A stretch of DNA of 64,000 bases. Source: an uncultured virus (IMG/VR IMGVR_UViG_3300028888_000091) (taxonomy: Duplodnaviria > Heunggongvirae > Uroviricota > Caudoviricetes). The stretch lies in IMG/VR virus record IMGVR_UViG_3300028888_000091. One strand, 5' to 3'. A model generated the notes under the pieces. The model ran no database searches. It saw nothing but the letters and a program-made list of their open reading frames with translations, and was not told the origin of the DNA. Made by a program: the position numbers and the translations under genes. This document shows positions 1 through 11,923 of this stretch, one piece after another (position 1 is the stretch's first letter; each line of letters begins with the position of its first letter).

Positions 1-16
1 AATTGATGATAGTGAT

Positions 17-244
17 ATGAGTAATGATACAGAAATGTATATATTCATAGATACAAAAATAAAAGAAGATGATTTTAACAATTATGATATGTTTGAATTG
101 TATTTAAATGATTTTAAAAGTGAATGTGATGAATTTATTGAATTACTTGATAAATCTATTCCATTTGAACATTTAAATATGAGTTATATTTATATGGTAA
201 ATTGTTGTGAGTTACATTTTAGAATAAAAGAGTTGGATTTTTAA
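17..244 (+). CDS. Small acidic hypothetical protein (early region)
   Basis: ORF with upstream GTGAT SD-like site; D/E-rich; no recognisable family. Confidence 0.6.
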   Translation: MSNDTEMYIFIDTKIKEDDFNNYDMFELYLNDFKSECDEFIELLDKSIPFEHLNMSYIYMVNCCELHFRIKELDF

Positions 245-250
245 ATAATA

Positions 251-294
251 AACCGAAAGGTTTATATACTATGGTAACCAACATAATAATAGAT
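251..294 (+). promoter_or_regulatory. Strong archaeal early promoter, copy 1 (BRE CCGAAAGG + TATA TTTATATA)
   Basis: aaccgaaaggtttatatactatggtaaccaacataataatagat; 42/44 identical to 844-887; intergenic. Confidence 0.85.
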
Positions 295-316
295 GAATTA
301 AAGTCATCAGAGAAAG

Positions 317-526
317 GTGATAATTATGGAAATAATAGAAAAAATGATTAAAGATATTGAAGAATATTTTAGTAAAATTCATTTCAAAGTAATAGAATAT
401 ACTGATAATACTATTACTTGTGAAAGAGATGATTTTGATTTAAGAATTTATGATTATATTGAAGAAGAATATAATCTGAATATAGAATGTGATTTAGGAT
501 TTGATACAATAACAATAATGTGGTGA
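317..526 (+). CDS. Small acidic hypothetical protein
   Basis: First ORF after promoter copy 1; AGGTGA SD suggests the true start is a few codons downstream. Confidence 0.6.
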   Translation: MIIMEIIEKMIKDIEEYFSKIHFKVIEYTDNTITCERDDFDLRIYDYIEEEYNLNIECDLGFDTITIMW

Positions 527-843
527 TAAGAATGAAAAATAAGCATGATGAAATAATTGATAAGATTACAGATATATCCGAAAAATATGAATTTGAATAT
601 TTAGACCAAGATGATGACATAAATGAATTGAAATTAGAATATGTTGGAGATGATTTAATTATCAAATATGAAGAGGATTTTGAAAGATATGAAGAATGGA
701 GAGAAATATTAGATGAACAATCAAAAATAGTTGAAAGAGAATTTGAAAAAGCAATCAAAGAAATCAAAAAGAGTATTAATGTTAAAGAATATGTGTATGA
801 TGATTATGATTATCCATGCGTATACTTATATTATAATATATAG
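520..843 (+). CDS. Acidic hypothetical protein
   Basis: ORF coupled to the upstream gene, GGTGA SD. Confidence 0.65.
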   Translation: MVIRMKNKHDEIIDKITDISEKYEFEYLDQDDDINELKLEYVGDDLIIKYEEDFERYEEWREILDEQSKIVEREFEKAIKEIKKSINVKEYVYDDYDYPCVYLYYNI

Positions 844-887
844 AACCGAAAGGTTTATATACTATGGTAACTAATATAATAATAGAT
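844..887 (+). promoter_or_regulatory. Strong archaeal early promoter, copy 2
   Basis: aaccgaaaggtttatatactatggtaactaatataataatagat; near-identical to 251-294. Confidence 0.85.
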
Positions 888-930
888 AACATATTTGTTA
901 TCTTAAAATAAAAAAAGGTGTTGATTAAAA

Positions 931-1203
931 ATGATAGAATTATATTTAGATGAAACTATGAGAGAACAATTAATAACATATGATTTTGAACATTCAGAAA
1001 TATGTTATGATAATATAAAACAATATGTCAGAAATACTGAAAGTCAGATATTATATGATATTATTTATGATTTATTATATACTAACAAAAAGAGATTAGA
1101 AAAAATGGGATTTGAAAAAAAAGATTTAGAAATCATAAAAGAAAATGATGTGAATATAAAATTTACAAACAAAAGGAAATATTACATAAAAGAAATTAAT
1201 TAA
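931..1203 (+). CDS. Hypothetical protein, MIELYLD paralogue family copy 1
   Basis: Shares MI(E/K)LYLD..MR, Y(I/V)xN(T/S)E..IL, GF, (K/R)FT motifs with 1243-1560 and 1590-1862; leader AAGGTGTTGATTAAAA. Confidence 0.8.
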   Translation: MIELYLDETMREQLITYDFEHSEICYDNIKQYVRNTESQILYDIIYDLLYTNKKRLEKMGFEKKDLEIIKENDVNIKFTNKRKYYIKEIN

Positions 1204-1242
1204 AATCAATAATTTAGAGATAAAAAAAGGTGTTGATTAAAA

Positions 1243-1560
1243 ATGATAAAATTATATTTAGATAAACATATGAGAAATTTAATATTAGGTTATGAATTTG
1301 ATTATAGAGAATATGATTTTGATGAGTTTTTATTTTATATTAGAAATTCAGAAAAATATATTTTAAAAAACATATTAGAAAATTTAGAATATTATGTATT
1401 AGAAAGATTTGGATTTGATGAAAAAACAATTGAAATAATCTATGAATGTGAATTTGAAGTTAGGTTTACAAATAAAAAAGGATATTATTTAAAAGGACAT
1501 GAAAATATTGAATGGGTTGAATGTAATTTTGAAAATTTTGTAAAAAATTATTGTGGTTAA
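1243..1560 (+). CDS. Hypothetical protein, MIELYLD paralogue family copy 2
   Basis: Paralogue; leader identical to copy 1. Confidence 0.8.
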   Translation: MIKLYLDKHMRNLILGYEFDYREYDFDEFLFYIRNSEKYILKNILENLEYYVLERFGFDEKTIEIIYECEFEVRFTNKKGYYLKGHENIEWVECNFENFVKNYCG

Positions 1561-1589
1561 AAAAAATAAAAAATATGGAGTGATTTAGT

Positions 1590-1862
1590 ATGATTGAATT
1601 ATATTTAGATGAATGTATGAGAGAAAGATTGTTGAAATATGATATTGAAAGAAGTGAAATGACTTGTGATAATTGTATGTATTACATTAGTAATACTGAA
1701 AGTCAGATATTATTAGATATTATAGATAATCTTGATTTTGGAGATATTGACTTATTGAAAGAATTAGGATTTAAGGAAGAAGATATTGATTTGTTATTCA
1801 ATTATGATATAACTATCAAATTTACAGATGAAGATGAGTATTATATCCATAAATGTGTGTAG
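1590..1862 (+). CDS. Hypothetical protein, MIELYLD paralogue family copy 3
   Basis: Paralogue; different SD (GGAGTGA). Confidence 0.8.
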   Translation: MIELYLDECMRERLLKYDIERSEMTCDNCMYYISNTESQILLDIIDNLDFGDIDLLKELGFKEEDIDLLFNYDITIKFTDEDEYYIHKCV

Positions 1863-1915
1863 GTGTTAAAAAATATTGAATATGAATTTAGAATTAAAAT
1901 TAAAAGGTGTTGATT

Positions 1916-2473
1916 ATGAGTTTAAAACAAGCATTTGAAGAAATTAAAAAACAAGATTTAGAAATTGTAAAAGAATGGTTAGAAGAAAACAAAAATGAGT
2001 TACATTACAATAAAGAAAAAGAAGTATGGTTAATTGATGGAGTGGAAATTGTTGATGAATTATGGTATGAACAAAAAACAAATCTTCATCCAAAGGTAAT
2101 AATTAAAGATATTGAAAATATTATTGAAAAAAATATAATGAATACTGACAAAAATAAAAAAAATTATGCAAAAATTGTATTACTTGATGGTAATTGGGAT
2201 TATGAAGTATATTATGATGAAATATATGATAATGAATATTATACTCTCATAGATAAGCAATTAATGGGAGCAAAAATTAGTGAGGAAATTAAATCAAATA
2301 TTGAAGTTACTGATGTTCTTAAAGAAAATGCAAATGAATGTGATGATTTATGGGAAATGTTTGATGATGAATTTGTTGATGATTTACTTTCAGAAATAGA
2401 TGGACATATAACAAACAAATTAAGAAATGAAATTGCAACATATACATTAGGAGAATTATTAGGGGGTTGGTAG
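1916..2473 (+). CDS. Acidic hypothetical protein (start revised to ATG 1916)
   Basis: AAGGTGTTGATT directly precedes the in-frame ATG at 1916. Confidence 0.7.
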   Translation: MSLKQAFEEIKKQDLEIVKEWLEENKNELHYNKEKEVWLIDGVEIVDELWYEQKTNLHPKVIIKDIENIIEKNIMNTDKNKKNYAKIVLLDGNWDYEVYYDEIYDNEYYTLIDKQLMGAKISEEIKSNIEVTDVLKENANECDDLWEMFDDEFVDDLLSEIDGHITNKLRNEIATYTLGELLGGW

Positions 2474-2474
2474 A

Positions 2475-2738
2475 ATGGATTGGTATGATATTACTTGGGA
2501 ATTAAGACAAGATGAAATGATTAAATCTTGTGGTTGTGATGGATTAGTAGATAGTTATTATAGTTTGAAAGGATTATATCATATGTGGGAATTAGGAGTA
2601 GATTTAAAAAATGAGTTTATATTAGATGTTATAAATTCTGCTATTGATGGTAGGAATAGATATTGTGGATTAAATGGAGTAAAAAAATTAGAGTATGTAA
2701 AATTTGAAAATGGAGAATTTATTTGGAATAATGAATAA
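2475..2738 (+). CDS. Hypothetical protein, paralogue pair copy 1
   Basis: WEL.QDE..SLKGLY..VDLK.EFILDVINS..LEYVK.E.GEF.W shared with 2757-3029. Confidence 0.8.
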   Translation: MDWYDITWELRQDEMIKSCGCDGLVDSYYSLKGLYHMWELGVDLKNEFILDVINSAIDGRNRYCGLNGVKKLEYVKFENGEFIWNNE

Positions 2739-2756
2739 TATTATGGTGATGATTTT

Positions 2757-3029
2757 ATGAATTGGCAAGAAATAATTTGGGAATTACAACAAGATGAAGT
2801 AATAGATGCTTATCAGAATAATGATTTAAGAAATGCTTATTGTAGTTTGAAAGGATTATATTGTATAAGGGAATTAGATGTAGATTTAAAAGATGAGTTT
2901 ATATTAGATGTTATAAATTCTGTAATTAGTGAAAGGAATATATATGGAAAAATAGATGGAGTAAAAGATTTGGAGTATGTAAAGATAGAAGATGGAGAAT
3001 TTGTATGGGATAATGAATGTTATGTATAA
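2757..3029 (+). CDS. Hypothetical protein, paralogue pair copy 2
   Basis: Tandem duplicate of 2475-2738, also similar at DNA level. Confidence 0.8.
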   Translation: MNWQEIIWELQQDEVIDAYQNNDLRNAYCSLKGLYCIRELDVDLKDEFILDVINSVISERNIYGKIDGVKDLEYVKIEDGEFVWDNECYV

Positions 3030-3043
3030 TGGAGTGATTTAAT

Positions 3044-3355
3044 ATGGGAATATATTTTAATATGGTGAATGGAAAAGGTGAAGAAATAATTTGTAATTGG
3101 AAAAAAATGATTGGAAAAATTGAAAGTAGAATATTAAAAGAAAAAGGAGAATTAATTGAATTAGAATTAGATAAAGAATATTATCTTGATATTCAAGATA
3201 TTACAAGAATTATAGATTATTATGAAGAATTAATTGATGGATATACAGATAATATGTGTCTTGGAGATGTAGGAATTGTAAGGAATATATACTTACCAAA
3301 TTTAAAAAAACAATTAGATAAAAAAGAACAAAAATACATAATTGTATGGAATTAA
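3044..3355 (+). CDS. Hypothetical protein
   Basis: ORF with GGAGTGA SD. Confidence 0.7.
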   Translation: MGIYFNMVNGKGEEIICNWKKMIGKIESRILKEKGELIELELDKEYYLDIQDITRIIDYYEELIDGYTDNMCLGDVGIVRNIYLPNLKKQLDKKEQKYIIVWN

Positions 3356-3377
3356 TATATATGGAGTTTGATTTAAA

Positions 3378-3857
3378 ATGAATTTTAATGAACAAAAAAC
3401 TATGGTAATGTTAATTGATAATGTATTATCTAATATATATAATACTGATGATATGTTTAATATAGGATTTCGTTTGTGTGAAATTCTTGAATATAATAGT
3501 AAAAAATACAATATAAACAAATTAGAGTATAATGATTATATTGATGTTGAAGAAAAATTACAAAATTATTTAAGTGATATTGAAAAAAATTATAATGAAA
3601 AATTAGGTGGTTTAATGACTGGAAAATTAATTAGAGTATGTAAAAGATGTGGTTGTGAAGTTGTATATGATGATTTGGAAGATTTTGTAAGTAAGGATTA
3701 TGATTGTGCTTGTCTTGTATGTGATGAAGATTTAGATTTATGGGAAACAGAATTAGTGCCAAAAGAAGAAGTAAAAATGTTTGTGAATGAAGAAGATAAA
3801 AATTATTATTTAAAGAATGGTTATTTACCATCAAAATTTGATAAAGTTACAGTATAA
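3378..3857 (+). CDS. Hypothetical protein with C-terminal Zn-finger (CxxC...CxxC)
   Basis: CKRC and CLVC; internal SD AGGTGG plus in-frame ATG at 3615. Confidence 0.7.
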   Translation: MNFNEQKTMVMLIDNVLSNIYNTDDMFNIGFRLCEILEYNSKKYNINKLEYNDYIDVEEKLQNYLSDIEKNYNEKLGGLMTGKLIRVCKRCGCEVVYDDLEDFVSKDYDCACLVCDEDLDLWETELVPKEEVKMFVNEEDKNYYLKNGYLPSKFDKVTV

Positions 3858-3874
3858 AATTCGGGGGAAAATTA

Positions 3875-4384
3875 ATGATTATAGATGAAAAAATATATAT
3901 ATTTCCAAATGGAAATATGAGATTATTATCAAAAACAAGATATACTTATAAGATAGATGAAATAGAAAAAAAACTTAAAAAATGGTATTCTCTTCATCCG
4001 TATAGTAAAAAAATAAATGAAACAGTATTTTGTGGGGATTATAGGATAGACCAACAAAGACCACAACGAAATGTGTATAGTGAAGTATATTGGAAAATAA
4101 TTAGTATAAGTGAAATGGAAAAAAGAGTATTAGATGAAACAGTAAAAAAAATAGAGAGTAATATTAATTATCCAACAGTTTATGATGATGGGAAAAATAT
4201 ATATTATGAAGAAACAATCCATTGTCCGAATTGTGGAAGAAGAAGAAAAGTATTAACAAGTAAAACAAATTGTGAATATTGTGGATTTGAATTTAGTAAA
4301 GGGGAACGATGTCCTAATTGTAATGATTTGAATTTAAAAAATTCTAATTATTGTATTCAATGTGGAAATAAATTAAAGGAGTAG
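3875..4384 (+). CDS. Zinc-ribbon (double zinc ribbon-like) protein
   Basis: CPNCG, CEYCG, CPNC, CIQCG. Confidence 0.8.
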   Translation: MIIDEKIYIFPNGNMRLLSKTRYTYKIDEIEKKLKKWYSLHPYSKKINETVFCGDYRIDQQRPQRNVYSEVYWKIISISEMEKRVLDETVKKIESNINYPTVYDDGKNIYYEETIHCPNCGRRRKVLTSKTNCEYCGFEFSKGERCPNCNDLNLKNSNYCIQCGNKLKE

Positions 4385-4389
4385 ATAAA

Positions 4390-4830
4390 ATGAGTAATGA
4401 GAGTAAAATATTAGAACATATTAATAATATAATGAATTTAACAATGTATTGTAGTGAATGTGGTTCAAAAAATAGTAAAGAAAATAATTATTGTCTTAAT
4501 TGTGGACATAAATTGAAAAGTATTTCTGAAAATGATGAATTGTATAGGAAATATTGTGTCTTTTGTGGAGAACAATTAAAAAAAGATGATGATTATTGTA
4601 GGTATTGTGGTAATAGTGTATCTTATGAAACAAGAAAGATAAAAATATGTTCTGTTTGTGGAGAATGGTGTGATGATGAAAGATATTGTTGGAATTGTGG
4701 GCATGATAATTCTAAAAATGTTCATATTCTAAAATTATTAAGTGAAAAAAAATGTCCGAATTGTAATTCTTACTATGATGGTTGTTATAGTTATTGTGAT
4801 GATTGTGGAACAAAATTAATAAAAAAATAA
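4390..4830 (+). CDS. Multi zinc-ribbon protein
   Basis: Eight CxxC motifs forming four ribbons. Confidence 0.85.
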   Translation: MSNESKILEHINNIMNLTMYCSECGSKNSKENNYCLNCGHKLKSISENDELYRKYCVFCGEQLKKDDDYCRYCGNSVSYETRKIKICSVCGEWCDDERYCWNCGHDNSKNVHILKLLSEKKCPNCNSYYDGCYSYCDDCGTKLIKK

Positions 4831-4874
4831 AAAGTTAGGAGTGTTAAATATTTAAAAAGTTTGGAGGAATAATT

Positions 4875-5390
4875 ATGAGTGTAAAATGTGAAGTTAAAGC
4901 AAGAGAAGATTTAGGTGATTATTGGGCAAAATTATCATTTTCTTGTAATGGAAAACCATTGGAGTTAGATGATGATTTAATGGAAGAATTATGTGAAGAG
5001 ATTGATTTTACATATGGGCAAGAAGGAAATTATCTAATTAATGATAATACTTCATTGTTTTGTGAAATTTCAAGATACCATTGGGGTGTATTTGAATTTA
5101 ATGATGAGTATTATAAAGAAGAAACCAAAGAAGTTATGGAAGAACATATTAGAAGTGCAGAGGAAATATTCAAAAAACAATTAGTTAGAAATCTTGGAAT
5201 ATATACTATTGCAAGTGAATTAGTGGCAAAAAAACTATTGGAGAATTATGAAATCGCAAGTGTTGATGATGGGAAAGTAGATAAAATTGCTTCATCTATT
5301 GAACAAATGTTTGAACAAATGGATTTGAATGAATTATATAATATGTCTGATGAAAAAGTTATAAAAATAATAATTGAAGAATTTATATAA
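4875..5390 (+). CDS. Acidic hypothetical protein
   Basis: GGAGG SD; no family recognised. Confidence 0.75.
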   Translation: MSVKCEVKAREDLGDYWAKLSFSCNGKPLELDDDLMEELCEEIDFTYGQEGNYLINDNTSLFCEISRYHWGVFEFNDEYYKEETKEVMEEHIRSAEEIFKKQLVRNLGIYTIASELVAKKLLENYEIASVDDGKVDKIASSIEQMFEQMDLNELYNMSDEKVIKIIIEEFI

Positions 5391-5426
5391 TAATTAAAAT
5401 TTTCAAATAATATGGAGGTATTAAAA

Positions 5427-5741
5427 ATGAGTAATTATAATCAATTAGTATTATGGATAGGTACAATTGTAGGTGAAGAAAATATTGAAGAATTTGAAAA
5501 ATATTTTGAAGAACAATTTGGATTTAGAGTAAAATACTTTAAGGAATTTAAATTACTTAATGAATATGAAAATAATTGTGTATTATTTTATATTCATTCA
5601 GAAGATATTCCAAAGTTTAGTTTATTTAGAATACAAACAAATGATATGAAATGGTTTGAAGATTATGTTGAAAATAATATATCTGAAATTCCATCTGAAA
5701 TTTTGGAATGGTATCCTAAATATATAAAAAATTATTTATAG
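5427..5741 (+). CDS. Hypothetical protein (start revised to 5427)
   Basis: GGAGGT SD precedes in-frame ATG 5427. Confidence 0.7.
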   Translation: MSNYNQLVLWIGTIVGEENIEEFEKYFEEQFGFRVKYFKEFKLLNEYENNCVLFYIHSEDIPKFSLFRIQTNDMKWFEDYVENNISEIPSEILEWYPKYIKNYL

Positions 5742-5769
5742 TATTAAATTATAATATAAAATAGAGATT

Positions 5770-5968
5770 AAAAATAATGTTTGGGAGAATGGATGTGTTA
5801 TTAAAAGAATAAATTTATTTAATTTATTTTATTAAATATTGTTTATTTTTTATCAACACCTTATAAATAATATTTTAAATCGGATTTGGAAGAACAAACT
5901 TTTAAGAAATACAACACCTTTGTTATTCTTTTTTTAATATATCCATTCTTCCAAATATTATTTTTTTT
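5770..5968 (+). ncRNA. Candidate structured small RNA with loops antisense to early-gene ribosome-binding sites
   Basis: 42-bp closing stem 5771-5812/5923-5964 (36 WC, 4 G-U, 2 U-U); inner 13-bp hairpin 5834-5875; two CAACACCUU motifs; ends in a U-tract. Confidence 0.65.
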
Positions 5969-6206
5969 CTTCAATAAAAAAAAGTTATTTTTAAAAATTT
6001 TAGTTATTTTTTTTCTTCAAAATAAAAAGGAGTGTGAAGATTTTTAGATTATTCTTTCCATTTAAATCTATTGAAATCTTCATTTTGTTTTAATGATTGC
6101 AATGTATATGATAAAGAAAATTTAATTATATTTTCATAATTTTTTTCACCAGTATATTTTCCAATTTCTTTAATCCAATGATTATGTGAAAATTTTTGAA
6201 TTTCTT

Positions 6207-6506
6207 TCATAATTTCATTGCTCTTATTTTTGATTTTAATTTTTCATTTTCACGATTTATTTTATTCATTATTTTTGTGCAATTTTCTGCTTCTTCATAA
6301 TTATAGCACATTATTATTTCATCTGATAATTTGTCAAGTACATTTATTCCATCTTGATAATATCTGTCAATGTTGATTTTTTTAATTTTGACTTCATTTT
6401 TTTCTAACCATTTGATGTCTGCATCATAAAAAAATGTATTGTCTGATATAATGTTTTTATTATTTATAAAAATGGATAAAATTTCTCCATAAATCATGAT
6501 TTTCAC
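6207..6506 (-). CDS. Hypothetical protein
   Basis: ORF only. Confidence 0.55.
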   Translation of the reverse strand: MKIMIYGEILSIFINNKNIISDNTFFYDADIKWLEKNEVKIKKINIDRYYQDGINVLDKLSDEIIMCYNYEEAENCTKIMNKINRENEKLKSKIRAMKL

Positions 6507-6680
6507 CTATTTTAATATGTTAAAATTGATTAAATTAATACTTATCAATAAAAGTACCAATTTAATCAATCATTTTTTTATTTTAATTGATATACCAATC
6601 AAAGTCCTTAATTTGATAATGTTTCATATAGATAACATTACCAAAATACATCATTCTTGAAACTCAATTTTTTTAATATT

Positions 6681-7106
6681 TTACCTATCTTCATACATTG
6701 CACATAATAAATCAAAATTATTACTAATAAAAGTAAAAATCTTACTATAAAATTTATATTCCAACTCACAAGATTTCAAAGTAACTTGTAAAGGTTTAAG
6801 TTTTAAATTAATAACACTATCCCTTTGAGTTTGATTAGTAACTTTTGCCAAACCATTACCTTCACGAAGTGCATTTTCTTCATTCCAATTAATACTAATT
6901 TGATAATCATCTTTCTTAAAATCATATCTTAATTTAGCATTAACATATTTCAAATGACTTTCCTTAACTAATTTTAACAATTCATCTAAATGAGATAAAT
7001 AATATTCAATATCTTCAACATCAATATCTTCAATTAAATTTTTATTGTTTTTATCATTCTCAACATTGTTTTCTTCTTGGATTTTTTTAAAATCATCTAA
7101 ACCCAT
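6681..7106 (-). CDS. Hypothetical coiled-coil protein
   Basis: GAGGTGA SD; helical composition. Confidence 0.7.
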   Translation of the reverse strand: MGLDDFKKIQEENNVENDKNNKNLIEDIDVEDIEYYLSHLDELLKLVKESHLKYVNAKLRYDFKKDDYQISINWNEENALREGNGLAKVTNQTQRDSVINLKLKPLQVTLKSCELEYKFYSKIFTFISNNFDLLCAMYEDR

Positions 7107-7118
7107 AATAAATTCACC

Positions 7119-7313
7119 TCAAAATTTCCCATTTTTTGATATTACAAAATCAATTAAACTATCCAAATCCATTTCAATCATATTCATATCACAAATAATC
7201 ATGAAAACTGATTTTGGAGTTATACATATAATTTCATAATCATAATATTGTAAACAATCACCTACATCTAATTGTTTAATTTTTTTAATGTATTTTTTAC
7301 ATATTTTATCCAT
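7119..7313 (-). CDS. Hypothetical protein
   Basis: Short ORF in operon orientation. Confidence 0.55.
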   Translation of the reverse strand: MDKICKKYIKKIKQLDVGDCLQYYDYEIICITPKSVFMIICDMNMIEMDLDSLIDFVISKNGKF

Positions 7314-7324
7314 ATTAAATATAA

Positions 7325-7362
7325 GAAAAAGGAAAATTTATGAAAAATCATAAATTCCTTTT
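7325..7362 (-). terminator. Hairpin plus U-tract after nrdD
   Basis: aatttatga/tcataaatt stem flanked by aaaagg/cctttt; U-run on the - strand. Confidence 0.6.
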
Positions 7363-7367
7363 AATCT

Positions 7368-10300
7368 CTAAATATTAATTTCATGTCTATACCTATCTTT
7401 AAATTCTTGCAATTTCCCATCGTTCCATTGTTTTGTTTCACCATTGGAACTTCTTGATATGACTGGAAGATAATATCCAGTAATTCTATCATATACAATT
7501 AAATCTTCACTTCCACAAATTGGACATTTTGTAATATTATCATTAATTGTATATTGACATTCTTGACAATATGTGAATACTTTACTATATGCCCAAAATT
7601 TTGTATTAGTTTTAAGTATTTTTTGATTTAATTTCCATAATGCTTTTGCATCACTCCAAACTTCACCTAACCAAATATGTAATAAATTACCGGCATCAGT
7701 CAATGGATGGAATTTATCTGCATTCTTAATATGTTTAATAATATTACTTTCATCATTAACTGGAATATGAGTAGAATTTGTTAAATATGGACTATCTTTT
7801 GTACCTTGAACAGTAATATCATCATACTTTTGTTTATTTAATTTACCAAATCTGAAACTGGTACTTTCTGCCGGAGAACCAATTACACTCCATCTCCAAC
7901 CATCTCTTTCTTTAAACTCATCTTTTTTTTGATTGATAAATTTAACAATTTCATAACCTAATTCATCATCTTCTGCAAGACTTTTGCCATTTAATTCTAT
8001 TTGTGCTTCATTTAAACCACAAAAACCAATAGTATAAGTACATCTATCAAGGTCATATAATTGTTCACCAGTTTCTTTGTCTTTCTGTAATAAGAAATCA
8101 GACATATGATATTCATAAATGATTTTTTCAACTTCACTTCTACGATGTTTCAAAGTCTTATAAATCACTTCACAATAATAATCTAACTTATTATAAAAAT
8201 TATCCATATCCTCTGACTCATAAGCAATCAAAGGTAAGTTAATTGTAGTATACATAAAGTTCCCAGTATTACAACAATCTTTACTATAATCATTGAAATA
8301 ATTCATAGGAAGAGCAGTGCGACAATTTTCTGAATGAATTCCACCTAAACCACAAACATAATTATGATTATTTTCAATACTTAAATCATAAACCATTTCA
8401 GTATTATCAACTAATTCAATTGATTTAATTTTGGTTTTATTTTTAGGATTATAATTTAAACCAAAAGAAATTCTATAATTAACTCTCCAATTACCACTAT
8501 CACCTATTCTATTATCTACATAAATAGTAGATTGTCTACCAATATAAGATAATGCATATAATACATCAATTACTAATGGTAAATCACTACAACTCCAATC
8601 CCATCTATACTTACTACCTTTTCTACCATCAAACATTAATCCTTTAATAATATTTGAAATAACATTTTTATCATGCCATACCCAATATGGAAAATGTTTA
8701 ATACCATTTATATCATAACATAAATTACATTTATCTCTTAATTCTTTATTTTTTACATAGATGGTATATGAATCATCTTTTCTATCATGAATTTCATAAT
8801 CATAATTATTTTTTTTACATAATTCAATAATTTGATTATATTTCCATTTTTGTTTAATATGAAATTCAATTATATTACTACTTCTACCACGAATTCTATT
8901 TTTATCTCTAACATATCCATCTGCTAAAAAAACACCTATAAATTCAGATTCAAAATCATCATAAGGAATATATGGTTTTTCAATATAATTATATAATTCC
9001 ATACCTATTTCTAAATCTTCACTTTTCACAATTCCTTTATTAGTAGGCAATTTATGATTTTCAGTAACTTTAAATTGATAATTATTATCAAGAGTAATTT
9101 TAAATACATTTGATGGAGCATTTTTAGGAATAATATTATATATTTTATTCCATTCTTTTGACCCATCTTTTGCATAAGTCATAACTGTATCACCAATAGA
9201 TAATTGTTGTGGATATTTAAATCCTTTATCTGTCATAACTGGGGTATCAGAAGTCAAAGCACCCATTACAGTTCTTTCAATCTCTTGACAATTAACATAA
9301 TATAAAGTCGGATTATTAGCACCTAACTCATGTAATAATTTACAATTACCTTCATATTTATCTAAATCACCTTCACGAAGATTGAATAAAATATTTGGGA
9401 AACGATGCCATCTACCTTGACCATCTTTCTCTTCTGAAACTTCTAATACTGCACGAAATATCATATCTGCTTCCTCTTGATAATCTTTATAAGTTCCAAC
9501 TGTTACACCACCAAAACTAACTGCCGGTTCATCTCTTAATACTGGTGGACAAGATAAATCCAATGCAATACTACTAAATAATATTTGTCCACCTCTGCAA
9601 ACAAGACTCATATTACAATTATACATGAAACCTTGAATTGCTTGTTTTATCCGATGATAAGGTAATCCTTTTGCAAAAGGAGAAAGTAATGTATTGAAAT
9701 TCACATATCCTTGACCACCACTAAAAACAGTAGCACCCGCCATAAATGCTTGTAAAAGATGATTTAACAAAACCTCTAAACTTTTTGCCGGTTTTGCAAC
9801 ACTTCCCATAACTCCTTTTCCATCAATCATTAATCCATTACGAGCAAAGAATCTTAAATCATAATTCATACAATTTTGGGTTAATACGAATCCATTGATT
9901 CCCGCAAGATAGTTATGATTATCTTCAATAGTTAAATTATAAACTGCTTGTGTGCCAGTATATTCTATGCTTTTTACTCTTAATTCACTTATTTCTTTAT
10001 ACTTCTTCATATTAGGATTTGCTTTTTCAATTATTGGAATAAATCTATTACAAATATTCATAGATAATAATACTCTTAAAAGTTTTTCTCCAAATGAAGA
10101 ACTATTATATGCATCTTTATGATTAGGATTATCAAATTCAGTAATATTAATAGAACCTCTTATACCAACATTTAATAAACATAATTGATATAAATCAAAA
10201 ATACTTTTATTTGTATTTGTGAAATTTAATCGTAGTACATTATTAATATCTAATCTGATATGACCATCACTATTAATCAATCCCTCTAATATTCCAGTTA

Positions 10301-11414
10301 AATTATACTTGGAAGTGTATTTTTTAATTAATTCATTTTTACTTAATTGAGGATATATTTTATCTTTAAGATAAAATAAATATGAATACCCAGTATCATA
10401 ATGATTAGATTCTTTTTCAGTATATGTGAAATCAATATTTAATCTTTCTAATAAGTCATATAAATATTGTGCTTTATCTTTTTTACTAAAACTAAACTTC
10501 ACATTACCTTTATTTGATATATACCCATCACCTAAAAAGAATCCAAATAAAGCACTTTCATTATAATTATCCATTTCATTATTTGTAAATTCATGTAAAT
10601 CTGTAATATTACATAATCTTAAATCTTTATAATTATTAAATTCAGATACTTTAATATCATATTGTTTTTGTGGTTTATTCTGATGAGATTTGATAAATTT
10701 ATGGTCATATGTACATTCAATACTATATCCTTTACCAAAAGTAATTAGATATGTTTCTTCTGATGGACTGGATAAATAAGCATTTTCTATTTTTTTCCAT
10801 TCCATACTATTAGTTTTAATATTTAAACTCGGCACATAATAAGTTTTATCAGTTAAAAACATTTCTTCTACAAATTCTTTTATTGTTGTATAAGAAATAT
10901 TGTTACTCTCATCTTTGATAACTATATTATTATTTCCACTTAAACAGTTTGGTCTTGTGTTAAAAAATTCAAGGTCATGATGATGCAAGTATCCATTTAT
11001 ATGTGCTTCACTACATTCTGATGGCATTTTCAATAAAGCATATTCTTTTGCAATACTGTCATATGCATATTTACTAACCATTTCGGGATTATATCCAATA
11101 TTTGCATTATCTTGACAACCAAACTTAACTAATTCTTCAAAATCAGAAACACTCATTCCTAATTTTCTACTTTTCTTCTCTTCTTCAATATACCCTTTAC
11201 TAATTAATTGTTGATTGATTAATGCACGAATTGTTGAAGTAGAAATTTCACTTTCATTATATTTATTTTTCAAAGCATGAATTACATTATTTTGGATTTT
11301 ACTTGCTTCTTCTTTATCCAAATTAGTTTCTTCCATTATTTTATAAGTAATTCTCTTTGGTTGAAATGGTTCTAAATCACCATATTTGTTCATAACAAAT
11401 TTAATTTCCATCAT
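7368..11414 (-). CDS. nrdD: Anaerobic (class III) ribonucleoside-triphosphate reductase with two inteins; mature protein about 678 aa
   Basis: N-terminal ATP cone, HHHDL..N-C, FSGGQG, FPN, MG|CR thiyl-radical motif, SPAES, CxxC..CxxC Zn site, RITGYY glycyl-radical motif. Confidence 0.95.
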   Translation of the reverse strand: MMEIKFVMNKYGDLEPFQPKRITYKIMEETNLDKEEASKIQNNVIHALKNKYNESEISTSTIRALINQQLISKGYIEEEKKSRKLGMSVSDFEELVKFGCQDNANIGYNPEMVSKYAYDSIAKEYALLKMPSECSEAHINGYLHHHDLEFFNTRPNCLSGNNNIVIKDESNNISYTTIKEFVEEMFLTDKTYYVPSLNIKTNSMEWKKIENAYLSSPSEETYLITFGKGYSIECTYDHKFIKSHQNKPQKQYDIKVSEFNNYKDLRLCNITDLHEFTNNEMDNYNESALFGFFLGDGYISNKGNVKFSFSKKDKAQYLYDLLERLNIDFTYTEKESNHYDTGYSYLFYLKDKIYPQLSKNELIKKYTSKYNLTGILEGLINSDGHIRLDINNVLRLNFTNTNKSIFDLYQLCLLNVGIRGSINITEFDNPNHKDAYNSSSFGEKLLRVLLSMNICNRFIPIIEKANPNMKKYKEISELRVKSIEYTGTQAVYNLTIEDNHNYLAGINGFVLTQNCMNYDLRFFARNGLMIDGKGVMGSVAKPAKSLEVLLNHLLQAFMAGATVFSGGQGYVNFNTLLSPFAKGLPYHRIKQAIQGFMYNCNMSLVCRGGQILFSSIALDLSCPPVLRDEPAVSFGGVTVGTYKDYQEEADMIFRAVLEVSEEKDGQGRWHRFPNILFNLREGDLDKYEGNCKLLHELGANNPTLYYVNCQEIERTVMGALTSDTPVMTDKGFKYPQQLSIGDTVMTYAKDGSKEWNKIYNIIPKNAPSNVFKITLDNNYQFKVTENHKLPTNKGIVKSEDLEIGMELYNYIEKPYIPYDDFESEFIGVFLADGYVRDKNRIRGRSSNIIEFHIKQKWKYNQIIELCKKNNYDYEIHDRKDDSYTIYVKNKELRDKCNLCYDINGIKHFPYWVWHDKNVISNIIKGLMFDGRKGSKYRWDWSCSDLPLVIDVLYALSYIGRQSTIYVDNRIGDSGNWRVNYRISFGLNYNPKNKTKIKSIELVDNTEMVYDLSIENNHNYVCGLGGIHSENCRTALPMNYFNDYSKDCCNTGNFMYTTINLPLIAYESEDMDNFYNKLDYYCEVIYKTLKHRRSEVEKIIYEYHMSDFLLQKDKETGEQLYDLDRCTYTIGFCGLNEAQIELNGKSLAEDDELGYEIVKFINQKKDEFKERDGWRWSVIGSPAESTSFRFGKLNKQKYDDITVQGTKDSPYLTNSTHIPVNDESNIIKHIKNADKFHPLTDAGNLLHIWLGEVWSDAKALWKLNQKILKTNTKFWAYSKVFTYCQECQYTINDNITKCPICGSEDLIVYDRITGYYLPVISRSSNGETKQWNDGKLQEFKDRYRHEINI
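8325..9260 (-). mobile_element. Intein 2 in NrdD (312 aa, Ala1...SEN/C) with LAGLIDADG-like domain
   Basis: Splits MG|CR; ALTSDTPV start, VTENH, FIGVFLADG, VYDLSIENNHNY...SEN. Confidence 0.9.
9873..10946 (-). mobile_element. Intein 1 in NrdD (358 aa, Cys1...TQN/C) with LAGLIDADG homing endonuclease
   Basis: CLSGNN start, CTYDH block B, LFGFFLGDG and LEGLINSDG, VYNLTIEDNHNY...TQN followed by extein Cys. Confidence 0.92.
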
Positions 11415-11923
11415 TCACCTCCATATGCTTTGTTATTTTGATATGAACCATCGTATTGACTTGCAGTTCCATCATTTTCATAAGTAACTGCTTGAATAAT
11501 TCTTTCATTTGCACCAATAATAATTGGAACATTTCTATTCGTATTATATAAACCCATCATTAATCTACCATTAAAACCATTATCTCCAATTGCAGAAATT
11601 AATAATAAACCACAACGAGCAAATGTGCTTCTAATAGCATAAGTTTGAGTATATCCATTTGGAATTTTAATATCCCTATCAGTTTTAACAAAATAATATT
11701 TCATAGGTTCTAATAGATAAACTGGTTTTTCATCTAAATAACTAATTTCTAATTCATCAAGATTTGGTAAAATTTTTTCATCTTCAATACAACCTAAAAA
11801 TCTATTAGGATAATCATCTTCATTTTGAAAAATACTACCCACTCTCAAATCAATACCATTTTCTTGCACATCATCGGCAAAATCCGGAAACAATTTAATT
11901 AAATTTTCTCTTCCAACAATCAT
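11411..11923 (-). CDS. Trimeric dUTPase / dCTP deaminase family protein (archaeal type)
   Basis: GIDLR, RSTFARCGL, GDNGFNG, ERIIQ, YDGSYQ motifs. Confidence 0.88.
   Translation of the reverse strand: MIVGRENLIKLFPDFADDVQENGIDLRVGSIFQNEDDYPNRFLGCIEDEKILPNLDELEISYLDEKPVYLLEPMKYYFVKTDRDIKIPNGYTQTYAIRSTFARCGLLLISAIGDNGFNGRLMMGLYNTNRNVPIIIGANERIIQAVTYENDGTASQYDGSYQNNKAYGGE

Follow-up and report, generated by a model that had tools for sequence, protein, structure and literature searches.

Genomic Context of the Element

The window analysed in this study is a 64,000-nt stretch of DNA from an uncultured tailed virus (Caudoviricetes; IMG/VR record IMGVR_UViG_3300028888_000091), and the subject is a 206-nt inverted-repeat element within it (5765-5970) whose central loop is complementary to the leaders of several small viral genes. 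The window is very AT-rich throughout (20-33% G+C). Genes on the plus strand occupy positions 17-5741 and genes on the minus strand run from 6049 to past the window end; the element lies in the gap in which the two sets converge and is made up, together with its nearest gene, of the following features:

5412-5741, plus strand: last plus-strand open reading frame (ORF), 109 aa, no known family according to the ORF list and family scans; the hairpin begins 24 nt past its stop codon
5765-5812, plus strand: 5' arm of the long stem, containing no C and 23% G
5834-5875, plus strand: inner hairpin with a 13-bp stem (5834-5846/5863-5875), 92% complementary, with one further G.U pair
5847-5862, plus strand: apical 16-nt loop UUUUUAUCAACACCUU, anti-leader copy 1, wholly unpaired (predicted P 0.88)
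5886-5892/5899-5905, plus strand: small 7-bp helix in the element interior, from the predicted structure
5912-5921, plus strand: anti-leader copy 2, CAACACCUUU, predicted to be unpaired with P 0.32
5923-5970, plus strand: 3' arm of the long stem, containing no G and including T7 (5929-5935) and T8 (5961-5968)

The structural genes of the window encode a terminase, a portal, a Mu-F-like protein, a prohead protease, an SU10-type major capsid protein, baseplate J and tail-fibre repeats, and a pseudomurein-binding repeat is present in one encoded protein. Other proteins include RecT, a DUF5906 primase/helicase-like protein, an XPD-like helicase, PCNA, dCTP deaminase and an NrdD with intein and LAGLIDADG domains (the Pfam scan covered 54 window proteins). 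The capsid protein has a single match among GenBank phages, Caudoviricetes sp. vir080 (35.7% identity), whose recorded host is Methanobacteriales. Based on this match and the gene content, the window is assigned to a tailed virus of a pseudomurein-walled rumen methanogen (Methanobacteriales), upholding the assumption of a methanogen virus made in an earlier note on this DNA. The same note had described the minus-strand block as a replication block; replication genes are indeed present, but the block also spans the terminase and structural genes and is therefore not devoted to replication alone.

A second record, G001, represents the same virus (99.98% identity across window positions 41709-64000) and extends the known sequence to 92.5 kb, its coverage being limited to 41709-64000 and beyond and thus excluding the hairpin region. 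Along the joined sequence, the minus-strand block ends at ~85.5 kb and is followed by another plus-strand block of small genes.

Structure of the Inverted Repeat

The two arms are 83% complementary over 48 nt each and are spaced by 110 nt. Of the 13 inverted repeats in the window that measure 26 nt or more, theirs is the longest, and the 42-bp repeat first described at this site (5771-5812/5923-5964) is real and is contained within it. Eight stem positions on the plus strand depart from Watson-Crick pairing, four as G/T and four as T/T, and would appear in RNA as G.U or U.U. The G/T mismatches fall at 5779, 5785, 5795 and 5797, with G in the 5' arm every time, in agreement with the previous description of four transition differences that all give G-U on the plus strand. 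The selection on RNA that had been read from this pattern is, in contrast, weakly indicated, as the 4/4 bias has p ~0.06 and strand composition is skewed in the same direction.

When both strands were folded as RNA, a check proposed in the earlier note, the plus strand was found to be far more stable (-61.1 kcal/mol, z -9.35, equalled by 0 of 200 shuffles) than the minus strand (-41.1 kcal/mol, z -4.49). The minimum-energy structure contains 70 pairs (54 A-U, 8 G-C and 8 G.U). The inner 13-bp hairpin and its exposed 16-nt loop were borne out by this model. A second copy of the loop core, CAACACCTT, is present at 5912-5920, 50 nt downstream of the loop copy; its existence had been noted correctly, but the surrounding 5912-5921, described as unpaired, is merely partly unpaired in the model.

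Rfam gave 0 matches at the gathering score in the whole window, with just four sub-threshold matches in 5500-6300 (E 0.49-6.8), and a consensus scan of 5300-6400 for bacterial-type intrinsic terminators gave 0 sites, only 8 of the 70 pairs of the structure being G-C. With respect to miniature inverted-repeat transposable elements, within the 64-kb window the arm sequence occurs in the two arms only and no similar inverted repeat exists elsewhere, and no target-site duplication is visible at the flanks on direct reading. Small ORFs within the element (e.g., 5886-6047, TTG start) were rejected as genes, having no Shine-Dalgarno (SD) sequence and a T-rich frame that is not credible.

Complementarity Between the Loop and Start Regions

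The start regions with which the loop is predicted to pair are as follows:

915-933, plus strand: predicted target 1, the SD, spacer and AUG of ORF 931 (by complementarity and duplex energy)
1227-1245, plus strand: predicted target 2, the SD, spacer and AUG of ORF 1243, a paralog of ORF 931 (by complementarity and duplex energy)
1904-1918, plus strand: predicted target 3, the SD, spacer and AUG of ORF 1916, which encodes an unrelated protein and shares 15 nt of the leader

The complement of the loop matches 915-930 and 1227-1242 with one mismatch each (15/16) and 1904-1919 with two mismatches, and the 11-mer AAGGTGTTGAT occurs exactly at 915, 1227 and 1904 on the plus strand and at 5852-5862 on the minus strand. 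These matches confirm that, as reported, the loop is antisense to the leaders of the paralogs 931 and 1243, and that 11 nt are matched ahead of ORF 1916. When target prediction was run for the loop against 67 start regions, the best loop-only duplexes were those with 931 and 1243 (-16.3 kcal/mol), 1916 (-15.0) and 2475 (-13.6), with the next at -10.1 kcal/mol. Pairing can also be extended over the AUG, as had been proposed: the extended duplex covers both SD and AUG with ~20 pairs at -21.3 kcal/mol, and opening of the target costs 4.5-5.3 kcal/mol. The 23 nt before the AUGs of ORFs 931 and 1243 are identical, yet the proteins are only 43% identical, an indication of constraint on the leader.

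A match of 15/16 to any of the 67 start regions was reached by 30 of 20000 loop shuffles and by 13 of 20000 random 16-mers from the window, although these chance tests are partly post hoc, the loop having been picked after it was seen, and do not separate function from shared ancestry. The 9-mer AAGGTGTTG occurs seven times in the window against 0.29 expected, a count that 0 of 100 shuffles reach; the leaders account for three of the seven occurrences and the hairpin for two, and these five lie in both orientations (the hairpin copies lie on the minus strand, e.g., 5912-5920). On the plus strand of the plus-strand blocks (13.1 kb), ACACCTT, and even CACCTT, is found at the two hairpin sites only, against 0.09 expected from composition. 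Among ATG-started ORFs of at least 50 aa, AAGGTGT stands no more than 25 nt before the start in 11 of 27 plus-block genes vs. 1 of 116 minus-block genes (Fisher p 1.6e-8). Eight further plus-strand genes with AAGGTGT leaders lie beyond the window, with loop duplexes of -8.9 to -10.1 kcal/mol.

One way in which such complementarity could arise is by descent, and the earlier note had named a decayed inverted copy of an early-gene leader as a finding that would count against regulation. No support for it was obtained: similarity of the minus strand to the 931 leader and gene start stops at a core of ~16 nt, and the flanks outside it are no more similar than shuffled sequence (the observed scores are reached by 1096 and 1755 of 2000 shuffles). 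An inverted copy of the nine promoter-leader units that lie beyond the window was rejected likewise (49 of 500 shuffles reach the observed score), and the GGATTTG/CAAATCC half-site was discarded as a sign of shared ancestry, being too common (26 and 19 copies).

The exposed CAACACCU motifs could also act as a decoy or sponge, mimicking the anti-SD at the 3' end of 16S rRNA and binding a protein or titrating SD sequences, including those of the host. Their CACCU core is what we take to be the anti-SD core of archaeal 16S rRNA, two copies are held in one scaffold, and duplexes of the loop with many AGGTG-type start regions come to -7 to -10 kcal/mol. The complementarity to 931 and 1243, however, continues well past the SD, at 15/16 and with ~20 pairs across the AUG, and a decoy function appears very improbable.

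The same sites might instead work at the level of DNA, as a replication terminus or fork barrier, a recombination or packaging site, a cruciform, or a set of double-stranded AAGGTGTTG sites for a viral protein, five of which are available in both orientations. Cumulative GC skew has its maximum at the hairpin (+0.5 to -0.3 at ~6000), in composition each arm mirrors its own flank, and with DNA parameters both strands fold nearly equally well (-31.8 kcal/mol for the plus strand vs. -28.0 for the minus strand; z -5.75 and -4.49). The skew switch, however, falls where gene orientation also changes, and its plus-to-minus polarity is what a terminus would show, not an origin. Additionally, neither Orc1/Cdc6 or another initiator family nor MCM was found among the 54 Pfam-scanned proteins. 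The leader copies occupy precisely the place of the SD, 6-10 nt ahead of start codons, a location tied to translation; the motif itself is no palindrome; and all stem mismatches are of the kind that RNA tolerates, on one strand only. We therefore consider a DNA-level role improbable.

Transcription Across the Convergent Junction

The following promoter candidates and oligo-T tracts bear on how the element would be transcribed:

848-861, plus strand: exact BRE/TATA sequence (BRE, transcription factor B recognition element) GAAAGGTTTATATA, promoter P2 before ORF 931, with a twin at 255-268
5376-5389, plus strand: BRE/TATA-like GAAGAATTTATATA, 23 nt before ATG 5412, a one-mismatch copy of the viral promoter pattern and the nearest candidate promoter
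5846-5851, plus strand: T6, the first plus-strand oligo-T of at least 6 since position 1, inside the loop, a possible early termination site
5961-5968, plus strand: T8 closing the long stem on its 3' side, probably the main plus-strand terminator by oligo-T analysis and U-tract termination
5976-5983, minus strand: T8 (A8 on the plus strand), the likely terminator of the minus-strand block by oligo-T analysis, reached before the hairpin
6007-6014, plus strand: second T8 in the list of oligo-T runs

No plus-strand T-run of at least 6 occurs in 1-5741, where shuffles have a mean of 4.9 (3 of 300 also have none), and the first four such runs (T6, T7, T8 and T8) all fall at 5846-6014; the T8 that ends the stem is the U-tract previously said to follow the inverted repeat. 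Within minus-strand genes, T-runs of at least 7 number 4 in the sense vs. 49 in the antisense orientation, and 12 of 16 sense-orientation runs are intergenic. The tracts at the element thus lie directly after the last plus-strand gene and are avoided inside transcription units, as is typical of archaeal oligo-U terminator regions. In a methanogen, U-tracts have been described to serve as terminators (PMC8716108, available in part). Given this precedent and the placement of the oligo-T runs, plus-strand transcription very probably enters the hairpin and ends within or just past the 3' arm.

A search between 5742 and 5765, directly upstream of the hairpin, found no BRE/TATA-like pattern, the pattern having been derived from the repeated GAAAGGTTTATATA of the virus itself. 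Because of this lack of a promoter directly upstream and the placement in a terminator zone, the hairpin is more likely the ORF 5412 transcript's 3' untranslated region (3'UTR), with read-through from upstream, or an RNA derived from it, than a separate small RNA (sRNA) gene. The original proposal of a virus-encoded trans-acting sRNA therefore stands with regard to structure and complementarity and is weakened with regard to an independent gene.

In modelled transcripts that begin at 5412 and end at either T8, exposure of the loop is unchanged (P 0.88). A transcript ending at T7 was considered as a switch, the 5' arm pairing the loop region at -27.2 kcal/mol, and was not claimed because the shuffled mean for its 211 nt is about the same (-26.7 kcal/mol).

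Another account of such a location is that the element is solely a terminator and RNA-stability element, which ends and insulates the convergent units and protects the 3' ends of plus-strand mRNAs, with the CAACACCUU copies being incidental or historical. The element falls exactly in the oligo-T zone of both strands, it has no dedicated promoter that we could find, and two T8-CTTCAA-A-run repeats follow it (5958-5982 and 6004-6028). The methanogen precedent for U-tract termination (PMC8716108, in its available part) agrees with this account, and none of the relatives searched for below shows the motif, so that selection on it is not demonstrated. What the account leaves unexplained are the two copies of a 9-mer otherwise absent from plus-strand transcripts, the 15/16 start-region match and the placement of that match in an apical loop. 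Archaeal oligo-T termination, moreover, is not known to need a hairpin, and no other inverted repeat in the 64 kb comes near the 48-bp stem in size. A purely terminating and stabilizing function is judged rather unlikely, though it is the most serious of the alternatives.

Separate observations were made on transcription in this region. The avoidance of oligo-T on the sense strand is accompanied by scarcity of BRE/TATA-like sequences (9 found vs. 18 expected in the whole window, both strands), and these two features could help to map transcription units in methanogen viruses. ORF 5412 has its TATA-like box 23 nt before the ATG and no SD, and its mRNA is probably leaderless; the Atlas record for this ORF begins at the second Met (residue 6), and nothing usable was obtained from Atlas for it. 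Two 25-nt direct repeats, TTATTTTTTTTCTTCAA(T/A)AAAAAAA, lie 46 nt apart at 5958-5982 and 6004-6028, each a mini-palindrome running from a T8 to an A-run, and probably terminate transcription in both directions between the hairpin and the last minus-strand gene.

A Possible Antisense Regulator Carried on a 3' End

At the level of sequence, everything that an antisense regulator would require is present: complementarity to SD and AUG lies in a region predicted to be single-stranded, and the predicted duplexes reach -16.3 to -21.3 kcal/mol. The reading that we favour, possible although short of probable, is that a 3'UTR-borne or 3'UTR-derived antisense RNA occludes the SD and AUG of a class of small plus-strand genes. 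We infer the existence and accumulation of the RNA, its pairing in vivo and the translational repression.

In the mechanism that this reading entails, the 206-nt element would be made as plus-strand RNA, forming the structured 3' end of the ORF 5412 mRNA and probably also of read-through transcripts from the upstream small-gene operon, with transcripts terminating at the U-tracts in and past the 3' arm. The 48-bp stem, in which G.U and U.U are tolerated, would give a very stable RNA, whose loop and second single-stranded copy would carry CAACACCUU, antisense to the AAGGUGUUG-type SD leader. The RNA could either stay on the mRNA or be trimmed to a 3' fragment of ~200 nt. Its pairing with the 931, 1243 and 1916 leaders over SD, spacer and AUG would keep the 30S subunit from binding, with weaker pairing expected for the wider AAGGUGU leader class, and the outcome would be negative feedback on, or a timed shut-off of, the small plus-strand gene class.

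A more specific form of this proposal, offered tentatively, would have the virus employ the 3' end of its small-gene transcripts, shielded by the hairpin, as an anti-SD RNA that is class-specific and acts through two exposed CAACACCUU seeds. Taken jointly with it, and with the same hesitation, the folding models suggest that the choice among the four U-tracts (T6 in the loop, T7, T8 and T8) might set whether the seed is absent, buried or exposed.

Several observations weigh against an antisense role. With respect to the RNA itself, many transcripts could stop prematurely at T6 in the loop and T7 in the 3' arm, and in a transcript that ends at T7 the loop is predicted to be buried (P unpaired 0.01). 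The region has only 18% G+C, and low-complexity A/U runs supply 5-6 of the 16 loop-leader pairs; the G.U bias of the stem is weak, as noted above. With respect to the targets, the leader statistics are inflated by paralogous repeat units, the leader of ORF 1590 differs, such that two of the three paralogs carry the shared one, and specificity is not absolute, given that two minus-strand genes outside the window reach -12.5 and -12.8 kcal/mol. In comparisons, the nearest viruses found have just NrdD and dCTP deaminase in common with the 67 window proteins, and the convergent junction of the 139-kb relative L010, the sole junction inspected, contains no long inverted repeat. Finally, in a sheep-gut metatranscriptome (run X1), a fraction of 0.53 of the sampled words from 3000-9000 was found, which may reflect carried-over DNA and was not used as evidence.

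Among described systems, sRNA162 of Methanosarcina mazei pairs with the ribosome binding site (RBS) and start codon of its target, and in vitro data argue that initiation is inhibited (PMC3432209, PMC3510493; both available in part). The element is similar in being a methanogen RNA whose single-stranded region pairs, here by prediction, with an RBS and start codon. Unlike sRNA162, which is a host gene of another order with its own transcript, it is viral, lies in a terminator zone and is known from its sequence, and no relation between the two is expected. The c4 antisense RNA of phages is processed from an operon transcript and acts at the RBS. In phages P1 and P7 (immI), it belongs to the same operon as its targets icd and ant and blocks downstream genes by pairing with the mRNA (PMC8198154, available in part). 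As with c4, a virus-encoded antisense RNA would here come from the operon of its own targets. Unlike c4, which is encoded upstream of its targets by a temperate phage of bacteria, the proposed antisense would be located ~4-5 kb downstream at a 3' end, in an archaeal virus and with two seed copies, and the two show no homology.

In bacteria, RNAIII and RsaE use C-rich hairpin loops that mimic the anti-SD and pair with the SD of several mRNAs, and 3'UTR-derived sRNAs are stable terminator-proximal 3' fragments that act in trans. Gram-positive and other bacterial sRNAs of these kinds rely on RNase III or Hfq contexts, and we know of no demonstration of such machinery for Methanobacteriales. The element also resembles archaeal U-tract terminators (aCPSF1) in having U-tracts right after the last gene and sense oligo-T avoidance, whereas these terminators are not described, in the available part of the source (PMC8716108), as needing a 48-bp stem or as bearing anti-leader motifs.

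Gene regulation in methanogen viruses is almost unexplored. The earlier statement that no such system is known for them agrees with a term-based search of the open-access literature, which found no report of a virus-encoded base-pairing regulatory RNA in archaea and is not proof of absence. If true, the proposal would provide the first regulatory base-pairing RNA for a methanogen virus, possibly for any archaeal virus, with a built-in timer or feedback on early genes, and would mean that archaeal viruses control the translation of a gene class by RNA-RNA pairing at SD leaders. Methanogen genetics would additionally gain a compact and portable repressor/leader pair, and attention would be drawn to a small-protein family with a confident, unmatched fold whose dosage the virus apparently must limit.

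Search for Related Elements

No DNA relative of the hairpin region was found in the viral, metagenome and genome collections or among GenBank phages, the latter giving no match for 5400-6300 or for the ORF 931 protein. Neither the loop 21-mer nor the two stem cores, sought as exact DNA patterns, had a match; with blastn, the hairpin gave only short A/T-rich matches to four related records, and 5400-6300 gave only low-complexity matches to G001. A two-motif pattern yielded 13 loci, all in unrelated coding DNA of 31-44% G+C, which were judged to be chance and set aside.

Protein-based searches for relative loci gave a similar result. Four loci in viral contigs matched the ORF 5412 protein at 35-40% identity; they differ in gene order past the match, appear to be higher in G+C and were left aside. 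The ORF 6681 and ORF 931 proteins found no relative loci. A profile of the three paralogs found none in 578 candidate stretches of metagenome contigs, a 16-row profile none in 139 candidates from viral contigs, and the capsid protein none in genome contigs.

The C-terminus of NrdD retrieved L010, L022, L011, L012 and L013 at 54-61% identity. NrdD itself (7368-11414, minus strand) has 1348 aa, carries intein-splicing and LAGLIDADG domains in two places and probably contains two inteins; its relatives are 1015-1016 aa long, or 674 aa in L011. L011, L012 and L013 sit in metagenome-assembled genomes titled Erysipelotrichaceae, Clostridiales and Bacilli, which are AT-rich bacterial bins showing no McrA, and may be either mis-binned contigs of archaeal viruses or true bacterial phages. 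In L010, the last plus-strand gene before the convergent junction (11424-11624) has a translation that resembles an archaeal histone-fold protein by eye.

Predicted Target Proteins and Other Promoter Features

ORFs 931, 1243 and 1590 are three tandem paralogs (931-1862) of a 90-aa family and are 43-48% identical. In a large protein collection, the family has 14 relatives at 39-94% identity, among them P0002 (94% identical to ORF 931), P0004 (85%), P0006 (73%) and P0007, P0008 and P0013 (56-63%), with contigs reaching 87 kb. Its predicted fold is confident (predicted local distance difference test score, pLDDT, 91.4) and found no match in the PDB by Foldseek (best E 1.8) or VIA-align (best Z 3.3); the target proteins gave nothing significant against Pfam and PHROGs.

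Between the P2 TATA box and the ORF 931 leader, about where transcription would be expected to start, lies a palindrome, GATAACATATTTGTTATC (885-902), that looks like an operator or a 5'-terminal mRNA hairpin. A promoter unit of ~45 nt, AACCGAAAGGTTTATATACTATGGTAACYAAYATAATAATAGA, occurs twice on the plus strand (247-293 and 843-890) and shares 89.6% identity over 48 nt with intergenic DNA of the distantly related vir080 (L037 401-448; BK063677.1 50200-50247); it may be a shared site for a strong promoter or regulator, or a copy of a host promoter. In the second plus-strand block (G001 44-50.8 kb, or ~85.7-92.5 kb of the joined sequence; L002), nine near-identical promoter-leader units of the form …GGATTTGTTTTAAGGTTTAAATCCTTTCAAATCCTTTAAATTAAAAATAAGGTGT…ATG each precede a small gene, and the inverted pair GGATTTG/CAAATCC, which flanks the TATA-like box in these units, looks like a repeated operator.

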